Sequence record: NZ_CP037472.2
Origin: a plasmid
DNA: 64,000 nt
Direction: 5' to 3' (one strand)
Below are positions 392 through 49,372 of this stretch, piece by piece; positions within the stretch are counted from its first letter, which is position 1; the number at the start of each line of letters is the position of its first letter. The notes below the pieces were generated by a model. The model ran no database searches and was not told the origin of the DNA. It saw nothing but the letters and a program-made list of their open reading frames with translations. Made by a program: the position numbers and the translations under genes.

Positions 392-958
392 ATGGTGGCT
401 TTACTAGAATTATTGAAGCAAAAGAAAAAGGAATTATACCCTAGAAATCAGAGAAAGGAAAAAAATAATATTTTTTCTAAAGTGGAAGAGGTTAATAACC
501 GCAAGATATATCATACTAAGATATTTAATGATTTTTATACTTTTGGGATAAGTAAAAATGAACCAACAAAATTTTTCATATCTCTTAGAGGGATTTTTAA
601 TATAGAAGATATAAGTATGTTTCACTTATTTTCTTTAAGAGGCGATGATATTTTTTTAGGTATTTATTATGGGATTAAGAAGTTAGACAAGGCATTTTTA
701 GTGAGAAATTTTAATAAAAGAGAGACCTATACTCTTAGAAAATGTGAGTATATAGAATTTAGATTTAAGAAAGGAGGGGTTTTTTGTTATTTAAGTGGGC
801 TTCATAATTTGTTAAAAAAAAATAAGGTTGAAAGTTCTTATTATCAAACTTTATTGAATATACTCCTAGAATTAGAAAGGGAGCTTTATGCATTTTATGG
901 GAAACAATTGCCGGAAGGGGGTATTATTCCGAAATGGATACAAAAGAGACAAAAGTGA
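392..958 (+). CDS. PF50/PF57-like plasmid maintenance protein (putative)
   Basis: 188 aa ORF immediately upstream of the ParA gene and overlapping it by 25 nt. This position matches the conserved Borrelia replication-partition cassette (PF57/62, PF50, PF32, PF49). Confidence 0.45.
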   Translation: MVALLELLKQKKKELYPRNQRKEKNNIFSKVEEVNNRKIYHTKIFNDFYTFGISKNEPTKFFISLRGIFNIEDISMFHLFSLRGDDIFLGIYYGIKKLDKAFLVRNFNKRETYTLRKCEYIEFRFKKGGVFCYLSGLHNLLKKNKVESSYYQTLLNILLELERELYAFYGKQLPEGGIIPKWIQKRQK

Positions 959-1689
959 TTACTGTTGCATCAATAAAGGGTGGAGTAGGTAAAAGTACTA
1001 CAAGTTTAATATTTGCGTCACTTTTATCGCAATCGTTCAAAGTATTAATTATCGATATAGATACACAAGCATCAACTACTAGTTATTATTTTAAGGTAAT
1101 AAAGGAAAGAGGGTTGGACTTATTCAATAATAATATATATGAAGTTTTAATATCAAATTTGCATATTGATAATTCTGTTGTAAGTATTAACAATAATCTA
1201 GATCTAATCCCAAGTTATTTAACTTTGCACAAATTTAATTCAGAAGCAATTCCATATAAAGAATTTAGACTAAAAGAGCAGTTAAAATTGTTAAGCTTTA
1301 AGTATGATTATGTAATACTTGATACTAATCCTAGTTTAGACTTTACTTTAACGAATGCTTTGGTATGTAGTGATTATATTATAGTTCCAATCACGGCAGA
1401 AAAATGGGCCGTTGAGAGTTTGGATTTATTTAATTTTTTCATAGACAAGTTATCTATAAGGGCTCCTATTTATTTAATTAATACTAAGTTTAAAAGAAAT
1501 AATACACATAAAGAATTACTAAACATTTTAAAAGAAAATGATAATTTTTTAGGTACAATATCTGAGAGAGAAGATTTAAACAGAAAAATAGCCAAAAATG
1601 ATGTTTTTGATTTAAATAAAGATTATATAAAGGAGTATCAAAATACACTTTTGACCTTGATGAAGAAGATCAAAGGCGTTATGGCTTAA
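934..1689 (+). CDS. parA: ParA-family partition ATPase (Borrelia PF32)
   Basis: Deviant Walker A KGGVGKST near the N-terminus (ITVASIKGGVGKSTTS). ~250 aa ParA/Soj-like length. Followed by a PF49-like gene. Confidence 0.9.
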   Translation: MDTKETKVITVASIKGGVGKSTTSLIFASLLSQSFKVLIIDIDTQASTTSYYFKVIKERGLDLFNNNIYEVLISNLHIDNSVVSINNNLDLIPSYLTLHKFNSEAIPYKEFRLKEQLKLLSFKYDYVILDTNPSLDFTLTNALVCSDYIIVPITAEKWAVESLDLFNFFIDKLSIRAPIYLINTKFKRNNTHKELLNILKENDNFLGTISEREDLNRKIAKNDVFDLNKDYIKEYQNTLLTLMKKIKGVMA

Positions 1690-1706
1690 GCTTGAACTAA
1701 ACTTAT

Positions 1707-1721
1707 GTACACTTAGTGTAC
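1707..1721. promoter_or_regulatory. 15-bp palindrome GTACACTTAGTGTAC between parA (PF32) and the PF49 gene; possible operator or partition site
   Basis: Perfect inverted repeat gtacac-tta-gtgtac read directly in the intergenic spacer. Confidence 0.25.
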
Positions 1722-1744
1722 GTACAGCAAAAGGAGGGTTAAAA

Positions 1745-2290
1745 ATGGGAGTAGAGGTTAATAAAAGGAATTTAGCTAAAGAAGTTACACCTGAAGAAAG
1801 AATATCTATTCACTATAATAAGCTTAAGGAAAAATTAAAAATTAATTTTCAAAAAGAAATTTTTTGTAAAATTGAGGCAATGAAGGTTTTAAAAGAGATT
1901 AAGGATAAAGAATACTATAAGCTTGATAATTATGCTAGTTTTGATGATTTTGCTAAGGATTATAGACTTGCAAGAACTCAAACATATAAATATTTAAAGA
2001 TAGCAACTGCAATTGAGGAAGGAATTGTAGAGGAAAAGTATGTTATTAACAATGGTATTAATAACACTATGTTTTTGATAAGAAATAAAGAAGGTGTTAG
2101 TATAAAGAAGTCCAAGCAAAATCCTTTGAGGCCTCTGAGATTTCAGCTTAAATGTCCTGATGCTTATGCATTTTATAAGCGAAATGCTAAGCTTACTAGC
2201 TTTCTTTTAGAGAAAGTTTTTTTAGATGAAAAAGAATTTTTATCTAAAATAATAAATCAATTTGATTCTTTAAAGAAGGTTAAAAAATAG
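1745..2290 (+). CDS. PF49-like plasmid partition/replication protein (putative ParB analogue)
   Basis: 181 aa basic protein directly downstream of PF32, the canonical Borrelia arrangement. RBS AAAGGAGGG lies 8 nt upstream. Confidence 0.55.
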   Translation: MGVEVNKRNLAKEVTPEERISIHYNKLKEKLKINFQKEIFCKIEAMKVLKEIKDKEYYKLDNYASFDDFAKDYRLARTQTYKYLKIATAIEEGIVEEKYVINNGINNTMFLIRNKEGVSIKKSKQNPLRPLRFQLKCPDAYAFYKRNAKLTSFLLEKVFLDEKEFLSKIINQFDSLKKVKK

Positions 2291-2700: not shown

Positions 2701-3225
2701 GCTCAACAGTCGTATTTTTATCAATTTTATGGGAATTATTATTATGTAAATAAAAAGCATAAAAAATATTTTGTTAGCTTTAATTTTTAGGTTTAATGCA
2801 TAAAAAAGTTTTTTTGGTAAGTTAAAAGGATTAGTGCCAATTTGAATAAATTGGGATTATAATTTCGAATTTATGGGTATTTAACTTGACATTAATATGA
2901 TAATATCTTAGTATTACACTTCCTAAAGATATATTTTATGGCATATAGTAATTATGCTGGTGGTATTAAGCTTTAAATTTATAATTTTTTATGTTTTATG
3001 TTATTAGTTACATTGGCATTGAAGTTGTTATCAGTTTATTATCATGATATTTTGTTTTAAAATGATTTTTAGTAATACTTTTCTCCTTTTTTATAGATAT
3101 TGGATCTTTACAGGGGGATGTTATCCAATATCTATTTTTATTGTATTTAAATTTTTTTCTATTTAACTTATTCTTAATTAATTTGAGCTTGTTTTTTTGT
3201 AAAAACTCGTTTACAATTTATTTAA

Positions 3226-6588: not shown

Positions 6589-7085
6589 AAATATTCTCCT
6601 TTTACCGTATTTTAATATGGTAATATTAATTGATTTGCTTTTATGGTATCATTTTTAGTTAAGAAATACAAGCATATTATATTTTAATAAATATTCTTTA
6701 TAAAGAATATTTATTAAAATATGCTAATTAAGCTCTTGATTTGTAATTTTAAGGGATACTTGATTTTTGGTTTTATATCTAAACATATTTATGTTTTATG
6801 TGTGTATTTAAATCTTGTAAATGTTATTAATTTATAATTATACTTAAATTATGCTTATAAAATTTTTTTCTGCTTAGTAGTTTTTATAATTTTATGGCAA
6901 TGTTTTTATTCTATTTTGAAATAAATGTCTTTTTTTTTAAGTATTTTGACAAAATTATAAATTATTTAGCTATACTAAAATGTTAATAAGTATTTTAAAT
7001 GGTGGATTTGATTGAGTATTAGGCTAGCATCTTTAAAGATGCTACACTCTAGTTTTTAGGCTATGGTGTGGCATCTTTATTTTTA

Positions 7086-7871
7086 TTAAAGTTTAAAATC
7101 AGGTGCAATTTTTGATATTTCTGGATATTGGTTAATTGTATCTTGTATTAAACGAACCAGGTAAGTAGTGTCAAGTAGTATTTCATACTCATTGGTTGTT
7201 TGATCGTTCATGTTTTGAACTTGTATTTTAGCTTGAATGTATTCATTTTGTGTAAGAGCCATTATTGTTTCTTTTTTGTGCTTTCCTACCCAAAATGTAT
7301 TTGTATAAGCAAATCCAGGTTCTTGTGAGGGTTCTCTCTTTGGTAGTGGAATGTGGAGCCAATTATAAAGTTCATATTTTCTATAATTGAAATCTAATTC
7401 GGGATTGTCTTTTAGATAAAAGTTTGCAACTGTAAGGTCTTCACCTCCATTTTGAGTTGATTGAAATATTACAACAGGCATAATCCTATTTGTAAAGCTA
7501 CCATTTTGTTTAATTGGAGATATTGAGTAAGAATATTTAATTTTCCCTTCAAGTTCTTTTATGGGTTTGTTATCTAATCCTTTAATGTTTAGGCCCTTAT
7601 TTTTCATCCATTCTAGTTTTTGTGTTGTAAAACCCGAACTAACTTCTTTAATACCTGTTAGTGTTTCATATTTTTCTTTCTTATTTTGTATGGAAGGGTC
7701 ATTAGATGAGCTAACTTGTTCATCTTGTTTTTTAATTAATTTATTTAAGTAAAGATTGCGCTTAGCATTGATTCTTTTCATTTCTTCAGCACTCTTGGAG
7801 TTCGTTTTTCCACTAGTATTGCATTGAATGCAAAGTATTACAATAGGTATTATTAATAGTAAATTTTTCAT
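7086..7871 (-). CDS. Lipoprotein, paralog of 29763-30569
   Basis: Signal/lipobox IVILCIQC-N. Shares the block YSYSISPIKQNGSFTNRIMPVVIFQS with the 29763 gene (YSVSPIKYNDQYSKYVMPLILFES). Confidence 0.6.
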   Translation of the reverse strand: MKNLLLIIPIVILCIQCNTSGKTNSKSAEEMKRINAKRNLYLNKLIKKQDEQVSSSNDPSIQNKKEKYETLTGIKEVSSGFTTQKLEWMKNKGLNIKGLDNKPIKELEGKIKYSYSISPIKQNGSFTNRIMPVVIFQSTQNGGEDLTVANFYLKDNPELDFNYRKYELYNWLHIPLPKREPSQEPGFAYTNTFWVGKHKKETIMALTQNEYIQAKIQVQNMNDQTTNEYEILLDTTYLVRLIQDTINQYPEISKIAPDFKL

Positions 7872-9386: not shown

Positions 9387-9692
9387 AAAATTAAAAAATA
9401 TTATCTTTTTAGCAAGTTTCTTAATATTTATGGCAATAAAGGTAGGTGATAGCATGTCGACTGTTTACTGAATCCGGGTATAGTGGCTCTTATTATTAAT
9501 AAATATTAACTTGCTATTCATTATAAATCGAAATCTAGTGCTAAAATTTTAGGCGGCATTTCAATTTTGTGTATCTAAGAAATTGATAGTTTTTTACCTT
9601 AAATTTTGTGAAAAATTAAGAACAAAATGGATGTAAATTTGTTTAATTTAAATTTATTGATATATAATGTTGATTCTGATTTTTATTAAAAT

Positions 9693-44780: not shown

Positions 44781-45129
44781 GAACAAGAAATACTTTGGTT
44801 TCCATTTTTTTAAGTTTTAGTTAGAGGCGAGTGATTAAGAGGATAGCTGTATTCTTTAAAAGAAAATTTAATACAAAGTATGTCATTTGTAAAAATGGAT
44901 AAACTTATTAACGGATTTAAGAAAAACATTTAACTTTAAAATTTTAATAATTGTACGAAATTTACCTATTATTGTGTTTCAGATAAATAAGACTTACATA
45001 TTTATATTAATTTATATTATTTAAATACAATCATATTATATTATAATATAATTATTATTATAATATAATATGATTGTATTGTACTTATTATAATATAATA
45101 TGATTATTTTAAGGAAGGAGAAATATCTT

Positions 45130-46080
45130 ATGAATAAAAAATTAAAAATGTTGATTTACTATATGTTATGTATTCTAGGTTTGATGTCTTGTAAAAACCC
45201 TGGATTAACTCGAAGGTCTCCAGATATTGATAGAAGCATTAAAGTGGTAATGGAGGGGGGGGAATTCAAAGGTTTACAAGCTTTAACCAAACAAGTTGAA
45301 CCCTCAAGTGGAGTTGGAGTAGTTGCAGATGTTAAGAAGACCAAAGAAGTTACTATAGTTGTAGATAAGGATAAAGCAGGTACAGTTTCAGGTCATAAAA
45401 CTTCAGGCAAGGTTGTTGCTATAGATAAACAAGCAGTGGTAGATTTGGAAAAAAAGAAATTAGAGGAGTATTATGATAAATTTTCAAATAATGTGGCTAG
45501 ATACAAGTCAGAATTTTTAAGTAATAATTCTCAAATTGCATCAAGTGGTATTTCATTACTTGAGCATTTCAAGAAAGTAGCATCAATCTTCGCAGGTTTA
45601 GAGCAACAGTTAAATATTTATATTGCATTAGGATATGATGTTGAGGCTATTAAAAAGTTGGGAGTGATACTTAAAAAATTAGATTTAGGTTATCCAGCTT
45701 CTCTAAATTATGGTGATACAAAAATTGCTAATAATTTATTGAATCTCTTAGAACAGGTTGGCCTTTACACTAAAAAAATTATGAATACTCATCTAAGCAG
45801 TGTAAATTTAAGTAGAATTAAAGTTGCAAAGACTTTAGATGATATTATTGCAATTGATTCTCTTTTAGAGAGCTTTATTCAAGAAAGAGAAAGGGCAGTA
45901 AAGACAATTAAAGACCAAATAACATTGTTAGCTGAAAAAGAAAAAAAAGAAGATCTCATGGAGGAATTAGTAAAAGTTATTAATTCAGGAGACGATCATA
46001 ATAGAACAATTAAGAGCGCATCTTATTCTATTGTAGGATTCTCGGATCAAATAGGCAATTTGATTTCTAAACTATTATAG
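45130..46080 (+). CDS. Family A lipoprotein paralog with an internal in-frame G8 tract
   Basis: ATG after AAGGAAGGAGAA. Lipobox ILGLMSC-K. Core IYIALGYDVEAIKKLGVILKKLDL. G8 at 45255-45262 encodes MEGGEF. Confidence 0.65.
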   Translation: MNKKLKMLIYYMLCILGLMSCKNPGLTRRSPDIDRSIKVVMEGGEFKGLQALTKQVEPSSGVGVVADVKKTKEVTIVVDKDKAGTVSGHKTSGKVVAIDKQAVVDLEKKKLEEYYDKFSNNVARYKSEFLSNNSQIASSGISLLEHFKKVASIFAGLEQQLNIYIALGYDVEAIKKLGVILKKLDLGYPASLNYGDTKIANNLLNLLEQVGLYTKKIMNTHLSSVNLSRIKVAKTLDDIIAIDSLLESFIQERERAVKTIKDQITLLAEKEKKEDLMEELVKVINSGDDHNRTIKSASYSIVGFSDQIGNLISKLL

Positions 46081-46122
46081 TGAAATGTGTTAACTTTTTT
46101 AGACTTAAATTTGAAATAGAAT

Positions 46123-46150
46123 AGGCCATGAGTATGGCCTAAATTTTTTA
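46123..46150 (+). terminator. Hairpin aggccat-gagt-atggcct followed by a T-run, downstream of the 45130-46080 gene
   Basis: 7-bp perfect stem read directly, then AAATTTTTTAT. Confidence 0.35.
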
Positions 46151-46692
46151 TAAATTTAATCAACAAAATTTAGTTTTAACTATAGATATATTTAGATTTT
46201 TTTGTTAATTCTTAAGCTTAGTTTAAATTATGTCTTAAAGACATGAATATACAAGTCTTAAAAGGTTGTATGGTTTATTGGATCTATTAGTTGTTTCTGA
46301 TCAAGCTAGAAATCATCATATTGTTGGTAGAATTTTAGATATTTTTCTAGTAAAAGATTTAACTTAAAAAGTTAATCTTGTTAAGATCTAATCTTAAAAA
46401 TGTTAAGAGACTAAAAAGAGTTGATCATATTGATAGATGATATTACAGTATAAGTCACTGAACTTATCGTGATCTTTAATGAAAACCAATTTAAGAGGAA
46501 TTAAAATTTCAAGATCTCGTCTAATAAAATAACTAATATCACTTAAAATTAACAATCAAACATAATAAGTGATTTTATTGGCATTATTGCTTCAAGCAGT
46601 TGTATCCGTTTAAATGTGATTTACTTAATAAATTTAATTTTAAATTAAATTCAATTTTAAATTAAATTTGATTGCAGATTTTGTGTTATTTA

Positions 46693-46790
46693 AGTATAAT
46701 AAATATTACAGGTTAAGCCACCACCTGATCCAGCTTACGTACTTTGAAACGTAATTTAAAGACGTAGGCTGTCCTTTTTATTTTTGATCA
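46693..46790 (+). ncRNA. Candidate small RNA mini-gene, copy 1 (promoter-like TATAAT, GC-rich leader, terminator hairpin, U-run)
   Basis: ttatttaagTATAATaaatattacagg, then ttaagccaccacctgatccagc. Hairpin cagcttacgtac...gacgtaggctg, then tcctttttattttt. Confidence 0.4.
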
Positions 46791-47297
46791 AATTATTAGT
46801 CTACATATTAATTAGTAATATAATAGATGTATTACCAATAAGTAATGTATATTATATAAGTTTATGGTTTTTGTTTAGTGTCATCAAAAACCATAAAGAT
46901 TAAATAATTTTTAGTTTAATGGTGTTATGTCTAGTATCTTTAGTTACTTTAATAATATTAAATTTTATCAGTAAAGATAAGAGATTGATTTTCAGTAGTA
47001 TTTGTTTAAACTAGTTAAAGTATTTTTTTGATAAATCTATGATGAGCTATTTTTAAATTATTAATAATCTTAAAAATAAATATTAGAATTAGATTATAGT
47101 AGTATTATGATAAATTATTGTTAAAGGAGAAAGAAAAACTAAGGCAGCAAAGTTTGAAATTAATTTATAGTTCATTATTTAGTAAATAGTCTTTTTTAGA
47201 ACTAAAACCCTATCAGGTGATAGAAAAAGTTATTTTTATTAATTTTTATTAATTGATAAAAACGTTAAAATTCATTATAATTGAGTTGCAAATCTTA

Positions 47298-47395
47298 TAT
47301 TATTTAAGTATAATAAATATTACAGGTTGAGCCACCACCTGATCCAGCTTACGTACTTTAAAACGTAATTTAAAGACGTAGGCTGTCCTTTTTTT
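47298..47395 (+). ncRNA. Candidate small RNA mini-gene, copy 2 (about 97% identical to copy 1)
   Basis: The same ~97-bp sequence with 2 substitutions (a>g at the leader, g>a in the loop), 605 bp downstream of copy 1. Ends in tcctttttttgat. Confidence 0.4.
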
Positions 47396-48556
47396 GATAT
47401 TATCTTATACTTTTCATTAAATTGTATAAAAAATATAAAACTAAAATCCTAATTAATCAATATGATTAATTAACATGTAATTAAAATATATCTATTTTTG
47501 TAATTGTTAAGGTCTGGTATTGTAATAGGTTATTAAGGGGGAAGACAATAGAATAGTATAAAAAGTAATTTCAATGTAGTAATGGGAGATATAAATAAAT
47601 GTTAGCTATGTAATGGAGGTTAGATGTGACAGGTTAGAAGTGCAGATTAAAATATGAAAGATGAGTATGAAAATAAACTATGAAATAATTTAGTAAAAAC
47701 TTTAGTTACAGTAATATTAATTGTGATAATTAATAATTATTCGTATATAATAATAAGTATAAAGATATATTATGTATTATATAGTAGTAAATATAGAGAA
47801 GTAAGTGTATACTAATTATTAGTTTTTAAAAAATAAAGAATGATAAAAATCAGTCTACATTTTTTAAGTAGGTAGTCTGGGTCAGGTGGTGGCTCTGCCT
47901 TTATTTTTATACTTGTAATTATATTAAAAAATTATAGGAAGCTATTTAATGTTGGGATATGGTCCACAGGTAGGTATGTCGTGTAAGGGATAAACTGTGA
48001 CTTATCGTTATTAGAAAATTAATAGACAAACTTAACAAGGGTGCAAAATAAAAATTTGAAAAAAGGTTAAGCCACCTATCAGCTTAATTATTGCATAACT
48101 GAGCTGATGTTAAACAATCGCTTATTGTTAAGCTAAGAACATGAAAAGTTTTATACTTTGACGTTAGTACATAAAAGTATTATATATATTATTATTATAT
48201 AGGCTTGATTTTTGTTTGTACAGTAGAAAAGCTTAAAAAGAGTAATTTTTACTGAAAAATCTGGTGAGTATTTGGTTATTTCATAATCATAGTAATATTT
48301 ATAGTCAAAAAATTAACGAAAAGAAAAATAATAACTAGTGGTTAAAAATCATTTAAATATATTTAGTAACGTGAACAGTTTCAAGTCATATGCTTTGACA
48401 AACTTTAATTTTATAACATCTTATATTAGTAGAGTATTAATTGTTATAATTAATTATAGCTTTTAGCTAGAATTATGAGTTTTAGTTATATGTGTATGGT
48501 ATTTGGTGATGGTTATTTAAATGAGAATAGAAGTGGGGAAGGGGGGCAAGAGTTGT

Positions 48557-49372
48557 ATGAAAAAGTTTAGTATGTTATTTGTTATGAGTGTGATTATTTG
48601 TATTTGTGTGGGGTGTAGGTTGTTTCAAGTCTCTTCGGAAAAAGCACGCTCTTATTTGACAGTTGTAAATGCATCATTAGATAATAAAATTAAGGAAGAT
48701 GCAGAATTGTCTAAAAGACTAGCATCGTCTTTAGTTATTTTAGAAAATTTAATCAAAAATAAAGACGAGATGCAAAAAATAGATAGAAGTTACTCTGAAC
48801 TTAAAGATAAAGTAGAAAAATATAGGTTAAGACTTAGCTCTCAGGAATCTGAATTTAGTCCAGATCTTAGTTCATTAATTGTGCTTTTTAGAGCAGTGGG
48901 AATGACGTTTGAGCATATAAGGATAAGGTACAATATTTATGCTACTCTAGGATATAATTTAACAATTATTGGGCAGTTGGAGAAAATATTGAATCACTTA
49001 AGTCTCAATGCTCAGAGTATAGATAGAAGTCTGGCATATGATTTACTTGTATTTTTAAGTAATGTTACAAATTTTGCTCGATTGATTGTAGATGTTTATT
49101 TAAGAGATTTGAAATTGGCTAAAATTGCAACTAAAGATAAAGTTATGACTGAGATTTATTATCAGCTAGATGAATTTATTATAAGAAGAGAGTACTTGAT
49201 AGAGAGAATGAAAGAAATGATAAGTTTAGTGGCATCAAAGACGGGTAATAAGCTAGAGATGTTAGAGATATTGGGTAGGGAACTTGATAAGGATTCAGAA
49301 ATTGTAAAGATGGTTAATTTACTTCAAGAAATTAAATATAAAATAGAAATATTGACTTGGACGTGGGAATAA
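48557..49372 (+). CDS. Family A lipoprotein paralog (last plus-strand member)
   Basis: ATG at 48557 with G4/G6 runs in the upstream RBS region. Lipobox CICVGC-R. Core IYATLGYNLTIIGQLEKILNHLSL. Confidence 0.6.
   Translation: MKKFSMLFVMSVIICICVGCRLFQVSSEKARSYLTVVNASLDNKIKEDAELSKRLASSLVILENLIKNKDEMQKIDRSYSELKDKVEKYRLRLSSQESEFSPDLSSLIVLFRAVGMTFEHIRIRYNIYATLGYNLTIIGQLEKILNHLSLNAQSIDRSLAYDLLVFLSNVTNFARLIVDVYLRDLKLAKIATKDKVMTEIYYQLDEFIIRREYLIERMKEMISLVASKTGNKLEMLEILGRELDKDSEIVKMVNLLQEIKYKIEILTWTWE

Follow-up and report, generated by a model that had tools for sequence, protein, structure and literature searches.

Candidate sibling small RNA genes and a conserved complementary leader in the lipoprotein gene array of a relapsing-fever Borrelia plasmid

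Background

Why does an array of surface lipoprotein genes on a Borrelia plasmid contain 2.4 kilobases (kb) of DNA devoid of protein-coding genes, in which a short GC-rich element occurs twice? The question is raised by positions 46081-48520 (the island) of a 64,000-nucleotide (nt) plasmid stretch (sequence record NZ_CP037472.2), the whole of which is referred to as the window. An earlier note, made from the letters of the window alone, had described the island as free of open reading frames (ORFs) and as carrying a duplicated mini-gene with a promoter and a terminator of its own. Indeed, no ORF of more than 50 amino acids (aa) was found in the island, the GC content of which is 22.8% (27.6% for the window). 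A tblastn search with 22 family proteins retrieved no remnant of a family gene from the island (all E > 0.6), so that at the protein level no gene graveyard can be recognised in it. The island matched lp72 of 12 strains of Borrelia miyamotoi as a single collinear piece with 94% identity, and the window therefore represents a B. miyamotoi-like lp72. Around the locus extends an array of lipoprotein genes of the PFam54/CRASP-like complement-evasion type, which in B. recurrentis is the neighbourhood of Chi/CihC/HcpA (PMC13128870).

The answer proposed here is that the duplicated unit is, as judged from sequence comparison, very probably a genuine and conserved small RNA (sRNA) gene family. The reading as a whole, namely sibling base-pairing sRNAs accompanied by a conserved target or sponge leader, is considered probable. 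That an inverted copy of the unit works as the plus-strand partner of the sRNA is advanced more tentatively, belief and doubt being nearly in balance. The argument builds on what was observed in the sequences, namely the anatomy of the locus, its conservation pattern, structural covariation, and a complementarity that is itself conserved.

Anatomy and predicted structure of the duplicated unit

The two units belong to a direct repeat (46620-46779 and 47234-47393), the second one being offset by 614 nt downstream of the first. Aligned in register (46693-46779 versus 47307-47393), they are identical at 85 of the 87 positions (97.7%), in agreement with the value of about 97% put forward before, and the RNA parts (46705-46777 versus 47319-47391) contain only two differences (71/73; 97.3% identical). 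The intervals proposed for the copies in the earlier note (46693-46790 and 47298-47395) cover the same element, except that the second one begins 9 nt out of register. The 17-mer core of the unit (GCCACCACCTGAYCCAG) was present three times in the 64-kb window (46717 and 47331 on the plus strand, 47877-47893 on the minus strand), the chance expectation being 0.02, and neither the core search nor the covariance model described below revealed a copy above chance in the remainder of the window.

Including their promoters, the units extend over 46672-46785 and 47286-47395 (Table 1). Transcription of unit 1 is predicted to start at approximately 46707-46708. Approximately 7 nt past the TATAAT box, the sequence ACAGGUUAAGCCACCACCUGAUCCAG is found, followed by the terminator hairpin and by UUUUUAUUUUU. 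The leader (AGGTTAAGCCACCACCTGATCCAGC; 46710-46734) has a GC content of 56%. Hence, the TATAAT box, the GC-rich leader, and the hairpin with U-run that had been pointed out before were all recovered, with both promoter and terminator located. Folding of 46709-46786 by means of RNAfold, a check that had been recommended for the unit, predicted a 5-base-pair (bp) stem-loop (SL1) and a 17-bp terminator helix, with an energy of -24.5 kcal/mol (z = -5.1 versus dinucleotide shuffles). This structure is the single dominant one for copy 1 (ensemble frequency 0.60); the fold energy of copy 2 amounts to -25.1 kcal/mol. The loop of SL1 is C-rich (UURAGCCACC), and the helix of the terminator hairpin comprises 16-17 bp. 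The unit contains neither an ATG nor a conserved ORF. Unit 1 is not the terminator of the upstream family gene (45100-46080), because that gene ends at its own terminator (Table 1). Within the sRNA, the stretch GGAUCAGGUGGUGGCU is named as the target for a Northern probe.

Conservation, covariation and retention through gene loss

The alignment comprised 14 copies of the unit from 10 species. Conservation starts at the -35 box, is near total from the -10 box through the core CAG, and ends at the U-run; the hexamers (TTGCAN-17-TATAAT) are invariant or nearly so in the 14 copies, with a drop in conservation just upstream of the -35 box. In the consensus structure, 97.4% of the cells are paired, versus 28-46% for slid controls. 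Furthermore, the terminator helix displays three compensatory pairs and six one-sided changes of the wobble type, and none of 500 shuffles reached the observed covariation score. The unit combines several properties expected of a free-standing sRNA gene, namely a conserved promoter of its own, an intrinsic terminator under selection, no coding potential, and conservation confined to the units. The conserved promoter hexamers and the covarying terminator support the earlier proposal of a self-contained, duplicated transcription unit of about 75 nt, which is a prediction from sequence.

The units are also more conserved than the DNA around them. Between the window and B. miyamotoi strain 410, identity amounts to 99.1% in the units and 90.7-94.4% in the spacers. 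Between species, the units and two further blocks are the only parts that align; the spacers do not. Upstream flanks distinguish two ancient paralogue types (copy 1 and copy 2), as found by comparison with the fetched loci L002, L003 and L004. In the window and in B. miyamotoi, the RNA parts of copies 1 and 2 are nearly identical and both of the copy-1 type. This homogenisation of the RNA parts within the window points to gene conversion that did not extend beyond the transcribed part.

An AT-only palindrome with a tandem repeat (AAATTTAATTTTAAATTAAA / TTCAATTTTAAATTAAATTT) occurs at 46630-46669, immediately before the -35 box of unit 1. The copy-1 type of B. anserina, B. hermsii and B. coriaceae has kept this palindrome, which the copy-2 type lacks; a role as UP element or operator, by which the siblings would be regulated differently, is possible.

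In B. hermsii, two to three lipoprotein genes separate copy 1 from copy 2, and a gene follows the unit in B. turicatae, Candidatus (Ca.) B. fainii, B. coriaceae and others. Such an arrangement would suit a unit that is the 5' leader or attenuator of the following lipoprotein gene, in which case the window would hold relics after gene loss. Indeed, a family gene on the same strand is found 160-290 nt past the terminator in B. hermsii, B. coriaceae, B. turicatae, Ca. B. fainii, B. parkeri, B. venezuelensis and B. puertoricensis. However, in the window, B. miyamotoi and B. anserina those genes are gone, with no remnant in the window island by tblastn, whereas both units are intact with no gene behind them. 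In addition, in B. turicatae at least, a family-type promoter block belonging to the downstream gene lies between the unit and the ATG of that gene. The strong terminator is followed by a good U-run, and no riboswitch or leader family of Rfam matched, even at E = 10. A riboswitch or attenuator is very unlikely, neither unit having a downstream gene in the window, B. miyamotoi and B. anserina, and the fold being a single dominant one.

Distribution among Borrelia

A 141-nt unit was searched by blastn against the plasmid records of PLSDB. It matched 29 records, all from relapsing-fever Borrelia, with one record per genome and one or two places within it. Eleven species were concerned, namely B. 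miyamotoi, B. anserina, B. hermsii, B. nietonii, B. coriaceae, B. recurrentis, B. turicatae, B. parkeri, B. venezuelensis, B. puertoricensis and Ca. B. fainii, so that the unit was found in every relapsing-fever species present in PLSDB. Outside the miyamotoi group, its identity is 83-93%, and the syntenic locus is always the same. The earlier note had left the choice between a dispersed element and an sRNA family to a BLASTN search; the outcome is a conserved relapsing-fever family that is not dispersed and that occupies one syntenic locus per genome. No Borreliella record was matched by blastn, although the collection holds at least 94 Borreliella plasmids.

A covariance model was built from the 14 copies, and plus-strand copies scored 83-105 bits with it. 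The model found nothing in lp54 of B. burgdorferi B31 (best match 11 bits, E = 6.5), the Lyme-group relative of the window plasmid (75% DNA identity, partition locus). The plasmid maintenance cluster of the window (392-2290), encoding PF50/DUF226, a ParA-type ATPase and a partition protein, is approximately 75% identical to that of Lyme lp54 (L132, 12995-14883) over the query stretch tested. This confirms the window plasmid as a relative of lp54, which in the Lyme group is without the sRNA locus.

Searches for known RNA families and for further copies gave little else. There was no match to Rfam 15 at the gathering score in the whole window, and none at E <= 10 over 46600-48200 on both strands; a search for tRNA and tmRNA genes retrieved nothing either. 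A scan of genome contigs with the 18-mer AGCCACCACCTGAYCCAG yielded, among the matches listed, chance matches in GC-rich genomes and none in Borrelia. A scan of metagenome contigs with a 21-mer yielded seven loci, one of which was a real copy (L141, with a score equal to that of copy 1 of B. hermsii), the rest being chance matches. Literature searches on sRNAs of relapsing-fever Borrelia and on the core sequence string gave nothing relevant in the searchable literature.

An inverted copy in the leader of a decayed lipoprotein gene

Exactly one minus-strand copy of the unit (type B) was found downstream of the plus-strand unit or units in all 10 species of which the fetched locus reaches there, the B. 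nietonii locus ending before this position. On the plus strand, the inverted copy reads CUGGGUCAGGUGGUGGCUC (approximately 47876-47895), which is complementary to the 5' region of the sRNA. The earlier note had placed a reverse complement of the leader core, able to pair with the RNA, at approximately 47873-47897. This is borne out by the location of GGGTCAGGTGGTGGCTC inside that interval (47879-47895), by the conservation of the core, and by a predicted duplex of -43 kcal/mol. The core of the inverted copy (CAGGTGGTGG; 47883-47892) displays a mean pairwise identity of 0.96 across nine species, which is the regional maximum (0.75 in the adjacent bins).

Approximately 100 nt upstream of the inverted copy, and facing it, a family-type promoter block occurs (Table 1), in which the promoter scan recognised GTGATA-17-TATAAT (47723-47751). 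The intact family gene at 48557 has the same block 80-100 nt before it (48436-48457), and so have intact coding sequences (CDSs) in the loci L006 (block at 2994-3067; CDS at 3118) and L003 (block at 7445-7492; CDS at 7552). Compared with these intact genes, the island has approximately 150 extra nt between the promoter block and a residual ribosome-binding site (RBS) and ATG, and the inverted unit lies inside this extra stretch. The residual ORF is probably a decayed lipoprotein gene start (Table 1), for B. turicatae, B. parkeri and B. hermsii carry a frameshifted or truncated lipoprotein signal peptide (MIRVCILCIFNVF...) at the homologous position. A promoter and a site that are conserved before a dead ORF suggest that the promoter and the sRNA-complementary site are under selection and that the gene itself is not.

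The sRNA might also act in a module like those of type I toxin-antitoxin systems, repressing a small hydrophobic peptide whose ORF follows the complementary site in the leader. Such a layout is known from tisB/istR-1, shoB/ohsC and zorO/orzO, and the residual ORF encodes a hydrophobic peptide of 35 aa in B. hermsii and of 16 aa in B. turicatae and B. parkeri. However, the residual ORFs (5-35 aa) are not conserved, as they comprise 14 unrelated codons for non-hydrophobic residues in the window, 12 codons in B. anserina (17 from an upstream in-frame ATG) and five in B. coriaceae; elsewhere, they plainly represent a frameshifted lipoprotein signal peptide followed by remnants of the LGYD motif of the family. 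The idea of a type I toxin was rejected because of this lack of ORF conservation, and a module of this kind is given hardly any credence.

Alternatively, the inverted copy could be a third, diverged sRNA gene on the minus strand, which shares the seed and is antisense to the leader, so that the conserved core would be an sRNA seed and not a target. The covariance model matches the inverted copies over their full length in all 10 species in which they were found, at only 26-37 bits; a weak hairpin and a U-run remain, and the window has TATAAA at roughly the right distance. However, the minus strand has neither a -35 nor a -10 box that the species share, most species have lost the 5' half of SL1, and mismatches accumulate in the hairpin without compensation. 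The minus-strand fold is weak (-5 to -11 kcal/mol, z = -2.0), compared with -16 to -27 kcal/mol for plus-strand copies. Moreover, a minus-strand gene leaves the conserved plus-strand promoter block before a dead gene unexplained. This alternative is hence considered unlikely.

Finally, approximately 500 bp with a promoter-like block are enclosed by a 48-nt inverted repeat (79% complementary), of which copy 2 and the inverted copy are the two arms; this may suggest a role at the DNA level, such as binding sites for a plasmid protein, an invertible promoter segment or the ends of a mobile element. Against such a role, each genome contains one or two intact copies and the inverted one at a single syntenic locus and not dispersed, compensatory changes in the hairpin and the invariant promoter argue for an RNA product, and the partition genes of the plasmid itself are 45 kb away; a function of the DNA as such is highly improbable. 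An invertible segment was rejected, since none of the 12 B. miyamotoi lp72 records and no other species differs in orientation. Similarly, no dispersed copies were found that would indicate a miniature inverted-repeat transposable element or the terminal repeat of a mobile element, the latter being an outcome that the earlier note had named as refuting it.

Pairing predictions and candidate targets

In a duplex-energy scan of the window, the plus-strand site of the inverted copy ranked first, the next site reaching -28 kcal/mol and the background being -7.2 +/- 3.6 kcal/mol. It was the top trans duplex in eight orthologous loci as well, with 15-25 contiguous pairs; over all nine loci, the top trans duplex amounted to -32 to -49 kcal/mol, versus a background of -20 to -28 kcal/mol. 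Five substitutions separate the site from the sRNA of the same genome, four of which give a G-U wobble and one of which, in B. hermsii, gives a mismatch.

Other targets were less evident. The G-rich RBSs of the neighbouring genes of the array family (family A) had been suggested as targets; this found no support, as 48521-48560 gave only -23 kcal/mol, a background value. A single position separates the seed (CACCACCU) from the anti-Shine-Dalgarno sequence (CACCUCCU), so that pairing with RBSs of the AGGUGG type is conceivable. No such RBS was found as a target for the seed in the window and loci scanned. Sites of 9 nt with perfect complementarity to the sRNA occur 21 times in the window, versus 7.5 +/- 3.7 expected, which is a mild enrichment. 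The sites at 2698, 17746, 27321, 29157 and 55615 look like chance and were rejected. At 55615-55628, inside a minus-strand CDS (55079-55915), the minus strand reads TGAGCCACC-TGATCAG, which corresponds to the sense sRNA core with a 3-nt deletion; this core-like sequence is probably due to chance.

The start region of the gene encoding PF50/DUF226 (Pfam match; start at 392), reading GGAUGGUGGCUU (390-402), is complementary to the loop of the sRNA. Within 385-405 (AAGGAAGGATGGTGGCTTTAC), a 9-nt perfect complement of this loop (UGGUGGCUU) spans the start codon. The start reads GGAUGGUGGCUUUAC in the window, B. turicatae and B. anserina; the PF50/DUF226 gene of Lyme lp54 instead has AUGACGGCUUUAC / ATGACGGCTTTAC. 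As a putative sRNA target, this start is a weak lead, since the enrichment of such 9-mers is mild and the start would be conserved by coding constraint in any case.

Proposed mechanism

In the favoured reading of sibling base-pairing sRNAs with a conserved partner leader, each sRNA gene would be transcribed from its own sigma-70 promoter and would end at its own intrinsic terminator, giving an RNA of approximately 75 nt. The working part would be the invariant 5' third (ACAGGUURAGCCACCACCUGAUYCAG), in which the 5-bp stem would present the C-rich loop, the seed consisting of this loop and its 3' flank. The partner would be the plus-strand sequence CUGGRUCAGGUGGUGGCUC, approximately 500 nt downstream of copy 2. 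This site may have arisen when an inverted duplicate of the sRNA gene was inserted into the 5' leader of a lipoprotein gene of the PFam54/CRASP-like type; in every species, the coding sequence of that gene would then have decayed with retention of the promoter and the complementary site. The sRNA and the leader would form a duplex of 15-25 bp. Through this duplex, the sRNA may destroy or silence the leader transcript; alternatively, the leader may titrate the sRNA, as a decoy or sponge, and thereby keep it from other targets. We infer the transcription of both RNAs, their pairing in vivo and the consequences of this pairing from the observations described above.

Several points weigh against this reading. 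In no species is the gene behind the putative target leader still intact, the site in B. hermsii contains one non-wobble mismatch, and the duplex scans revealed no convincing mRNA target in the 64-kb window or the fetched loci, no second site rising above background. SL1 is invariant across copies, so that covariation is uninformative about this stem-loop. Furthermore, the shared core could have been kept similar by gene conversion between copies; gene conversion between copies 1 and 2 clearly occurred in the miyamotoi lineage, and copy 2 of B. coriaceae and its inverted copy carry the same G-to-A change. Lastly, the expression of either strand is presumed from the sequence.

In its boldest form, which is regarded as quite unlikely, the proposal would be that a leader whose lipoprotein gene died long ago has persisted over tens of millions of years solely on account of the inverted sRNA copy in it. 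As a sponge derived from a pseudogene, or as a partner in mutual antisense pairing, this leader would set how much of the two sibling sRNAs is active, and these in turn would control genes elsewhere. Candidates for such genes are PF50/DUF226 and the surface lipoproteins that are switched at the tick-to-vertebrate transition.

For a computational candidate, the support for the unit is unusually strong: its promoter is conserved, its terminator covaries, the units were retained when neighbouring genes were lost, and each genome has two to four members of the family. The conserved complementary partner makes post-transcriptional control on a virulence plasmid open to a simple experimental test. 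In addition, its absence from the Lyme group makes the unit a lineage marker and a possible contributor to the differences between the two groups.

Other features of the island

The features of the locus are listed in Table 1. A third, diverged copy with a palindrome of its own had been reported at 48066-48110. A hairpin-bearing copy (type C) was located there, the covariance match being marginal. Its similarity to the unit begins at 48064 (AGGTTAAGCCACCTATCAGCTTAA), and the shared part is followed by a short deletion relative to the unit. Across species, the pattern consists of AAAAAGGTYAAGCCACC, followed by YATCAGC and a hairpin. Neither a recognisable promoter nor a U-run was found for the type C copy, and its fold is unremarkable (z = -2.5). 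It is identical to that of B. miyamotoi at all 59 positions (59/59), the flanks being approximately 92% identical. Homologues occur in B. anserina (L002, approximately 9624-9675) and B. recurrentis (L005, approximately 6668-6720), just downstream of a plus-strand family gene. Judging from its sequence and position, type C is possibly a relative of the unit borne by a 3' untranslated region.

In addition, a noncoding block at 48165-48239 (L002, 9737-9806; L005, 6779-6855) displays approximately 80% identity across species. In B. anserina and B. recurrentis, it is located between the last plus-strand family gene and a convergent CRASP-like gene.

Table 1 Coordinates of the predicted features of the island in the window
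Feature	Coordinates	Strand	Description	Evidence
Unit 1 promoter	46672-46700	+	-35 TTGCAG (46672-46677), 17-nt spacer, -10 TATAAT (46695-46700)	Read from sequence; conservation
Putative sRNA copy 1	46705-46785	+	~72-78 nt; SL1 with 5-bp stem CAGGU (46709-46713) / ACCUG (46723-46727) and 9-nt loop UAAGCCACC (46714-46722); terminator hairpin 46731-46771; U-run 46775-46779, continuing at 46781-46785	Fold; covariance model 99.5 bits
Unit 2 promoter	47286-47314	+	-35 TTGCAA (47286-47291), 17-nt spacer, -10 TATAAT (47309-47314)	Promoter scan, 10/12 matches; alignment
Putative sRNA copy 2	47319-47396	+	SL1 47323-47341, loop UGAGCCACC; terminator hairpin 47345-47385; U-run 47389-47395	Covariance model 101.5 bits
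Family-type promoter block	47716-47775	+	ATTAATTGTGATAATTAAT...TCGTATATAATAATA	Identity 0.7-0.87 across 9 species versus 0.1-0.4 in flanks
Inverted degenerate copy (type B)	47840-47905	-		Covariance model 34.8 bits, E = 3e-6
Probable decayed lipoprotein gene start	47935-47994	+	Residual RBS AGGAAG and 14-codon ORF (ATG 47950)	Homologous position in relatives
Diverged copy (type C)	48059-48117	+	AAAAAGGTTAAGCCACC, then TATCAGCTT and own 8-9-bp hairpin	Covariance model 15.8 bits, E = 0.35
Terminator closing the upstream family gene (45100-46080)	46122-46141	.	Bidirectional terminator hairpin	Terminator scan

Comparison with known small RNA systems

Sibling sRNAs with C-rich loops are known from LhrC1-5 of Listeria and from RsaE/RoxS of staphylococci and Bacillus; they measure approximately 75-110 nt and have their own promoter and intrinsic terminator. 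Genes of this type occur as tandem repeats in an intergenic region, where the C-rich unpaired motif is conspicuous against the AT-rich DNA. LhrC controls surface and lipoprotein genes; RNAs of the LhrC/RsaE type carry UCCC motifs in their loops and have Shine-Dalgarno targets. The Borrelia units are similar in being tandem short putative sRNA genes with a C-rich loop, located inside a surface-lipoprotein array. However, their motif is CCACCACC and not UCCC, no relationship by sequence or Rfam family exists, the phylum is a different one, and no Shine-Dalgarno target was found for the Borrelia unit. Hence, the likeness is confined to the working principle.

A second comparison concerns istR-1/tisB, ohsC/shoB and orzO/zorO, in which a nearby sRNA gene has approximately 20 nt of complementarity to a 5' leader. 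Similarly, the Borrelia sRNA gene is located within approximately 0.5-1.5 kb of a leader with 15-25 nt of near-perfect complementarity, which is far beyond the usual trans seed. In contrast with these systems, the Borrelia leader is without a conserved toxin ORF, the sRNA and target promoters point in the same direction instead of diverging, and the complementary site can be recognised as the sRNA gene itself, duplicated in inverse orientation.

Thirdly, RNA sponges, such as the chb intergenic trap for ChiX, SroC for GcvB, and 3'ETS-leuZ, are transcripts kept for their complementarity to an sRNA seed and not for an encoded product. A conserved promoter and site before a dead gene fit this pattern. 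Known sponges are, however, parts of functional operons or processed fragments, whereas the putative Borrelia carrier would be the leader of a pseudogene.

Lastly, the sRNAs described in B. burgdorferi comprise DsrA-Bb, ittA on lp17, and BasA (PMC9108270, PMC13081726). These come from the same bacterial family as the unit, some of them lie in intergenic regions of plasmids, and host-adaptation genes are associated with them. No similarity to the unit was detected among them, however, and BasA is unrelated (PMC13081726). Belonging to none of the first three systems, the unit would represent a new family, confined to relapsing-fever Borrelia, of a well-known kind of sRNA.

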